Part shown: positions 1-678 of the stretch, piece by piece
How the letters are laid out: every line of letters starts with the position of its first letter
Numbering within the stretch: position 1 is the stretch's first letter
NCBI RefSeq assembly: GCF_003334335.1
Contig: NZ_QOWQ01000161.1
DNA from: Escherichia coli
GTDB lineage: Bacteria > Pseudomonadota > Gammaproteobacteria > Enterobacterales > Enterobacteriaceae
Reading direction: 5' to 3' (one strand)
Length of the DNA stretch: 678 nucleotides
The notes under the pieces: generated by a model
Told to the model about the DNA's origin: nothing
Databases searched by the model: none
Seen by the model: only the letters and a program-made list of their open reading frames with translations
Program-made: the position numbers and the translations under genes

Positions 1-125
1 TCCGGGATATAACGGCGGTTCTCCGGCAGGAAAAACTCCCTCGCCAGTATCACACTGTGTTCCTTCAGTAACGCCTGCAGACCATACTCCAGATAGCGAT
101 TCCTGGTAGCCAGAATCACCTTCAT
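1..125 (-). CDS. Hypothetical protein, N-terminal 41 codons only (gene continues beyond window start); possibly a receiver-like/LuxR-family-type regulator N-terminus (weak)
   Basis: ATG at 125..123 with a well-spaced SD. Manual translation gives MKVILATRNRYLEYGLQALLKEHSVILAREFFLPENRRYIP with no stop through position 3. It is absent from the supplied ORF track, presumably because the visible part is short. The pattern hydrophobic-L-x-T-[RK]-[ND]-x-[YF]-L-x-x-G-L-x-x-LL resembles the beta1-alpha1 start of atypical receiver-like domains (compare GadE MIFLMTKDSFLLQGFWQL, recalled from memory). The product call is speculative. Confidence 0.4.
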   Translation of the reverse strand, partial: MKVILATRNRYLEYGLQALLKEHSVILAREFFLPENRRYIP

Positions 126-153: not shown

Positions 154-189
154 ATGAAAAACGGCAGACCAGAGTCCTGCGCCTGCCGT
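154..189 (-). terminator. Putative Rho-independent terminator downstream of the adhesin gene
   Basis: Exact inverted repeat acggcag (161..167) / ctgccgt (183..189) gives a 7-bp GC-rich stem. On the minus-strand transcript it is followed immediately by UUUUU (plus-strand aaaaa at 156..160). The hairpin starts 24 nt after the TAA stop (216..214). The loop is long (15 nt) but can partly pair internally (gcagac / gtcctgc). Confidence 0.45.
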
Positions 190-213
190 CATACTTCATG
201 TCACCTTCAGCAA

Positions 214-678
214 TTAAAACTCGAAGTTCACACCAACGTTCCAGGAGGCATCGCCATCACTGAATGCCACGCCTGCTTTCGCTGCGGTCTGCTCGTTGAA
301 GCGGTAACCCACACCCACTGCCAGTGCCTGCTGGTCGCTGTAACCACCAACCGCTGCCGTGGCGTTGAATTTACCCACACTGTACGGCTGGAACAGACCT
401 GTCAGGGCCGCAGACTGTGCTGCTGCTCGTTTCATTTCCTTGTGGTTTTCATTAATCTGGCGCTGCTGGCTGTCCAGACGTGCTGAATGTTGCTGCAGCG
501 TACGGGTATTGGCTGCAATCGCCTTGCTGTTTTTCTCAATGGATTGCGTGTTACGGGTGACACGGCCATCAATGGCACCAACTGCTGCATCAATACGGTC
601 AGTACGACCAGACAGGGCCACCAGACCATCGTTAACAGAAATGGTGTTCTTTGCACCTTCTGCACGGGTCAGGGTGCC
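214..678 (-). CDS. Trimeric autotransporter adhesin (YadA/Eib-like), C-terminal part: coiled-coil stalk plus YadA-type beta-barrel membrane anchor. Partial: the 5' end of the gene lies beyond the window end; stop codon TAA at 216..214.
   Basis: Manual minus-strand translation in the frame of the 214..621 ORF is open through to position 678: [154 protein letters not shown]. The last ~70 aa align closely, from memory, with the Yersinia YadA membrane anchor (...[36 protein letters not shown]..AGVAY....NASFNIEW). Present are the conserved GG pair (343..348), alternating small/hydrophobic beta-strand residues, and a C-terminal aromatic residue (Phe) typical of outer-membrane beta-barrel insertion signals. 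Upstream of the anchor is a polar, Ala/Gln/Asn/Arg-rich segment typical of a trimeric autotransporter stalk. Confidence 0.85.

Follow-up and report, generated by a model that had tools for sequence, protein, structure and literature searches.

The window analysed here, a 678-nt stretch of an Escherichia coli contig (NZ_QOWQ01000161.1), is occupied along its minus strand by what we read as the edge-cut 3' end of a gene of the eib family, an intrinsic-terminator-like hairpin and the 5' end of a homologue of ORF-156 that runs off the left edge (Table 1). Eib proteins are the E. coli immunoglobulin-binding trimeric autotransporter adhesins, which belong to type Vc secretion. The eib-type frame is free of stops from position 678 down to a TAA at 216-214, giving 154 codons; the initial annotation had described it as open between the edge and a GTG at 621, and the residues there read exactly as it had quoted them. 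This GTG, which corresponds to CAC at plus-strand positions 619-621, is codon 20 of the 154, and it is also the first codon of the 135-aa entry (214..621) in the list of open reading frames. The entry begins at this point because the edge of the window leaves no upstream stop, so that the first in-frame start-like codon was taken.

The hairpin downstream of the eib-type gene was recovered by a terminator scan (match at 180-164, followed by CGTTTTTCAT); the RNA of positions 126-216 folds with -30.7 kcal/mol (z = -3.1), and a stem_loop is annotated at the same place in the prophage records P-EibA, P-EibC and P-EibD. A scan of the window against Rfam at E-values up to 1 gave no match. The ORF-156 homologue is preceded by a good Shine-Dalgarno (SD) sequence, AGGAAGG at 139-133 (-7.8 kcal/mol), and in related records it always lies immediately downstream of eib. 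Its complete product of 156 aa, encoded down to position 4655 of locus L001 (PhiR5_2), matches phrog_6585, a family without an assigned function (E = 5e-99), and has no match in Pfam or NCBIfam. On the plus strand an ATG-initiated ORF of 110 aa at 154-486 lies antisense to the eib coding region, and is most likely a by-product of codon bias on the opposite strand.

Table 1. Features recognized in the 678-nt window
Feature	Position	Strand	Evidence
3' end of eib-family trimeric autotransporter gene, 154 codons plus TAA, cut by the edge	214..678	-	translation, homology, PDB matches, phrog_9547
C-terminal part of the saddle minidomain (window residues 1-21, EibD 358-378)	616..678	-	aligns to 2XQH chain residues 221-241
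GTG, internal Val codon (window residue 20, EibD Val377)	619..621	-	invariant Val in all homologues, SD pairing, no leader
Left-handed coiled-coil stalk segment (about window residues 22-95), adjoining the anchor	394..615	-	2XQH and 2XZR matches, AF2 helix, domain order in PMC12511318 and PMC7247746
YadA-like membrane anchor (window residues 96-154), ending NVGVNFEF	217..393	-	PF03895, 2LME match
Intrinsic-terminator-like hairpin and T-run, downstream of eib	157..191	-	terminator scan, RNA fold, stem_loop annotations
ORF-156 homologue, 5' end, ATG at 125-123, runs off left edge	1..125	-	annotated CDS in all related records

Domain architecture of the encoded C-terminal region

Over the 154 residues, identity to the C-termini of EibA, EibC, EibD and the PhiR5_2 protein amounts to 97-100%. 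Their distal part contains the YadA_anchor domain (PF03895, E = 4e-16), which is matched over the full model and lies at the extreme C-terminus of both full-length versions that were searched; Pfam detected nothing else of significance in these. The anchor typical of type Vc trimeric autotransporter adhesins was also recovered by sequence match, with window residues 77-153 aligning to the YadA anchor structure 2LME (E = 2e-19). Proximal to it, the EibD crystal construct 2XQH is matched over its last 61 residues by window residues 1-61, and the EibD fragment 2XZR by residues 24-86, so that window residues 1-86 as a whole match stalk fragments of EibD. These matches, together with that of the anchor, bear out the initial identification of the product as a trimeric autotransporter. 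The window protein aligns from its very first residue to positions 271-413 of the 413 in phrog_9547, which means that about 270 profile positions lie outside the window.

Window residue i corresponds to residue 357+i of EibD (511 aa), and this register can be used to place the boundary of the saddle. A deletion in EibG 'up to and including the saddle' spans Q28-A375, and the same study pairs EibG 447 with EibD 450, an offset of 3 (PMC12511318); EibG A375 is thus equivalent to EibD A378 and to window A21. The 'V450' given for EibD in that study mismatches the ECOR-9 EibD sequence, which has T450, and our placement of the boundary depends on the equivalence of A375 with A378 and on the offset of 3. 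By this mapping the GTG would encode the penultimate residue of the saddle, with the left-handed coiled coil following next. The initial annotation had called the residues upstream of the GTG stalk-like, which is approximately right in that they belong to the Eib stalk, although as the saddle, a non-helical insertion in it (PMC7247746), and not as coiled coil proper. An AF2 monomer of the 419-aa version, built on an 11-sequence alignment, is of low confidence (mean pLDDT 58.7, below 50 across the saddle and the anchor) and gives no more than a weak hint of the start of the helix. In qualitative agreement with the mapping, it is non-helical to residue 290 and helical over residues 291-357 of the L001 protein, i.e. 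window residues 26-92. Immunoglobulin binding in EibD maps to the stalk (PMC7247746, citing Leo et al. 2011); at 97% identity the coiled coil of the window may therefore carry the putative IgG site.

Among the closest named systems is EibA from the prophage P-EibA of E. coli ECOR-9 (AF151091, AAF63234), with 99% identity over the 154 residues and complete identity over residues 1-100. The likeness extends to the stop codon, the terminator stem-loop and the downstream ORF-156, and, in the full-length relatives of the window, to the 5' UTR and the context of the ATG; the DNA of the window, however, is only 95.7% identical to that of P-EibA. EibD and EibC (P-EibD, AF151675; P-EibC, AF151674) are 97% identical over the window protein, with saddle, left-handed coiled coil and anchor collinear and five substitutions in the saddle and the beginning of the coiled coil (T2K, K10T, N11K, S14A and A31Y). 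They differ from the 386-436-aa relatives of the window in having a beta-roll head like that of YadA as well as a right-handed coiled coil, both of which are absent from the latter. The likeness to YadA of Yersinia, the prototype trimeric autotransporter adhesin, is limited to the anchor and the adjacent coiled coil, and the YadA model NF033478 is matched only in part (positions 359-458 of 459; 75 bits, far below its 750-bit cut-off). YadA is plasmid-borne and binds collagen, whereas the Eib proteins are prophage-borne and bind immunoglobulins. The order of saddle, left-handed coiled coil and anchor, here conserved at 97-99% identity over 154 aa, is the C-terminal architecture common to Eib proteins (PMC12511318).

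The start of the gene in full-length relatives

That 19 codons upstream of the GTG are free of stops is in itself unremarkable, since such a run has a chance probability of about 0.44 at the base composition of the coding sequence; across 619-678, two plus-strand frames out of three are open as well. The open frame was therefore rejected as sole evidence, and it is homology that decides the question of the GTG. To this end 13 related loci were read, namely PhiR5_2 and the chromosome of SW070917 (both 100% identical over the window), eight chromosomes matching at 99% or better, P-EibA, P-EibC and P-EibD; 11 of these were measured by script, and EibC and EibD were handled apart. In all 13, the two perfect matches included, the frame continues past the position of the window edge, with no stop right beyond it, until it reaches an ATG. 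This ATG lies 696-846 nt past the edge in the 11 measured loci, which encode products of 386-436 aa, and further out, at about 1070 nt, in EibC (504 aa) and EibD (511 aa). In each of the 11 it is preceded by an identical 20-nt segment, AATTTTATAGGGTATACCAC, and by a stop 6 codons on its 5' side, with no other start in between. The annotated coding regions of PhiR5_2 and SW070917 (419 and 423 aa) end at the same stop as the window, and every annotation in the related records places the start at the distant ATG. The initial annotation had located the true start beyond 678 and considered the 135-aa call an underestimate of the gene; relatives of 386-511 aa that end in a matching C-terminus support it on both counts.

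The strength of ribosome binding separates the two starts only in part. At the GTG the SD pairing amounts to -2.7 kcal/mol, a value within the range given by the other in-frame ATG and GTG codons inside the gene (+0.6 to -3.4 kcal/mol), and there is thus no ribosome-binding site of the kind that the initial annotation had named as evidence against itself. Yet the conserved ATG also has a weak SD (TAGGG, -3.9 kcal/mol), and because of this ribosome binding is not decisive; it is homology and the leader peptide that tell the starts apart. All 13 full-length relatives begin with MSKKFT(K/M); a hydrophobic segment some 15 residues long, small residues and a polar mature end come next, with cleavage-like motifs such as LSA|K, IMA|G and VSA|Q. 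The best mean hydropathy over 12 residues (Kyte-Doolittle) is 2.23 for the product of the ATG versus 0.88 for that of the GTG. Judged heuristically by charge, hydrophobicity and cleavage-site features, these N-termini are predicted Sec signal peptides, situated outside the window; the use of Q27 as a mature EibD residue in PMC12511318 agrees with cleavage after VSA26. Of the start with a ribosome-binding site and a Sec leader that had been anticipated beyond 678, the homologues therefore show the ATG and a signal-peptide-like leader, but only a weak ribosome-binding site.

The predicted leader has a bearing on export. Trimeric autotransporters require a signal peptide, a passenger and an anchor (PMC12511318, PMC7247746), and the outer membrane is inaccessible to an anchor-bearing protein devoid of a Sec signal, as established for these proteins and restated in PMC12511318. 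The earlier argument that a signal peptide and a passenger must be accommodated beyond the 135 residues is in keeping with the relatives, all full-length members of which carry, besides the leader, passengers of about 230-350 aa. If the GTG were a genuine start, alone or as a second, internal one, the product would be a 135-aa protein of coiled coil and anchor. GTG is a permitted bacterial start codon, and this one falls almost exactly at the boundary between the saddle and the left-handed coiled coil, so that translation from it would yield a stalk-anchor unit that is coherent in structure. However, such a product would have no hydrophobic core and hence no Sec export, which would keep its anchor from the outer membrane. 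The 19 codons before the GTG are, moreover, conserved as protein: EibA and ten other near-identical loci share all of the residues, and EibC and EibD share 15 of the 19. With the SD pairing and the annotations also against it, initiation at the GTG is so improbable that it can practically be disregarded, and the GTG is an ordinary internal valine codon. We accordingly favor, at a probability of about 0.93, the reading that an Eib-family gene ends in the window with its last 154 codons, that the 135-aa ORF is an artefact of truncation and that the real start is the distant ATG. Continuity of the gene past 678 is here projected from homologues, which diverge from each other 2-19 nt beyond the edge.

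Distribution and prophage context

Of 5,426 complete E. coli genomes, 42 have matches to the window, all of them chromosomal; the number of places per genome has a median of 3 and reaches 6. Identity is 99% or better in twenty records. Each of the 25 genome matches listed lies under an annotated 'YadA C-terminal domain-containing protein' CDS, with a hypothetical protein coming next. Among phage records the window is 100% identical to Escherichia phage PhiR5_2 and 95.7-96.0% identical to the ECOR-9 prophage records P-EibA, P-EibC and P-EibD, whose annotation names the product immunoglobulin-binding protein EibA, EibC or EibD. PhiR5_2, nine E. coli chromosomes and P-EibA/C/D have the gene order ORF-191/DUF4376 tail-fibre assembly, eib, ORF-156, ORF-60 and eaa, and with the start of ORF-156 lying within the window, the locus has the prophage setting of the Eib genes. 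In strain NCTC9112 the usual tail-fibre assembly gene is replaced by an IS21-family element (ISEc12 istAB; L010 4359-5678).

The multiplicity of the module and its position in prophages leave room for a different kind of locus, namely a degraded or rearranged eib copy, interrupted by an IS insertion or a deletion just past 678, in which the GTG would again be internal and no intact start would exist upstream. The window does end within 2-19 nt of the point where the homologues cease to be alike, the module is multi-copy and prophage-borne (with the median of 3 places per genome given above), and the eib-type gene of NCTC9112 has its IS21-family element about 460 nt upstream. Nevertheless, the genes are intact in all 13 loci, that of NCTC9112 (393 aa) included, and all 25 genome matches listed have the annotated YadA-type CDS under the match; we regard a broken copy as quite unlikely, and the intact gene with a distant ATG remains our preferred reading. 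As a matter of speculation, a short window that ends at the edge of a multi-copy module may stem from a repeat-collapsed assembly contig.

A conserved 3' module joined to unrelated passengers

Alignment of the loci showed that a conserved 3' module of about 485 nt begins 2-19 nt past the right edge of the window (L001 5679-5700); one locus shares about 240 nt more with PhiR5_2 beyond this boundary. A second conserved segment lies at the other end of the gene, where the 5' UTR or promoter region hardly varies (2-7 mismatches over 300 nt, L001 6474-6773), and neither do the first 12-43 nt of the coding sequence. Near-invariance over about 300 nt ahead of unrelated passengers points to a conserved regulatory leader, and a stem-loop is annotated in this region, 5' of the eib ATG, in the P-Eib records.

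The passengers between these segments fall into two classes, an EibA-like class (L002, L003, L008, L010 and L011) and an AT-rich class (L001, L004-L007 and L009), which are 16-24% identical to each other. Their GC content is 38-44% versus 54.5% in the module; the AT-rich class, which in PhiR5_2 occupies L001 5700-6392, has 38%. Searched against the phage collection, the AT-rich passenger matched only CDSs annotated 'hypothetical protein' or 'adhesin' in PhiR5, PhiR12 and GER2, with no match in the P-Eib records. The 419-aa PhiR5_2 protein that bears it matches phrog_9547 over its full length.

The two perfect matches of the window belong to different classes: one (423 aa) has an EibA-like passenger with insertions, 71% identical to the EibA passenger, and the other (419 aa) the unrelated AT-rich passenger, 21% identical to it. 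Neither differs from the window at any of its 678 nt, and the first base that tells them apart lies 2 nt past the edge, so that the window itself fits either class of passenger equally. From these alignments we conclude that the window is a conserved 3' module that is joined to at least two unrelated classes of passenger. A more tentative proposal, which we rate at somewhat less than even odds, is that the window represents a recombination cassette, composed of saddle, IgG-binding-type coiled coil and anchor, which has been grafted on to unrelated passengers, and that the passenger in the source strain is perhaps one of the AT-rich class.

Under the preferred reading, the gene would lie within a lambdoid prophage, in its late or accessory region, and would start at the conserved ATG about 700-850 nt past 678, or at about 1070 nt were it of the EibC/D type. 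The predicted product would begin with the Sec signal peptide (MSKKFTK...), continue with a variable passenger made up of head and N-terminal stalk, and end with the conserved module of the window, i.e. saddle, left-handed coiled coil and four-strand YadA anchor. By analogy with the established biology of trimeric autotransporters, three such anchors would assemble into a 12-strand barrel for export and display of the passenger trimer, with IgG Fc probably bound by the stalk.

Implications

What was noted at the GTG is a window-truncation artefact in a gene family that has been characterised since 2000. Its significance is mostly one of quality control: the ORF called in a short window may begin at an arbitrary internal GTG, and reasoning from the length of such a call is unsafe. 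The Eib family is associated with virulence (serum resistance, immunoglobulin binding and chain-like adherence); its binding of IgG Fc is non-immune, and some of its members bind IgA as well. For this family the added value is modest, and consists in the window being almost exactly the conserved 3' cassette common to Eib-type proteins with different heads. Should the source strain indeed carry the AT-rich passenger, its protein would represent an unnamed Eib subtype, probably one that still binds IgG Fc.
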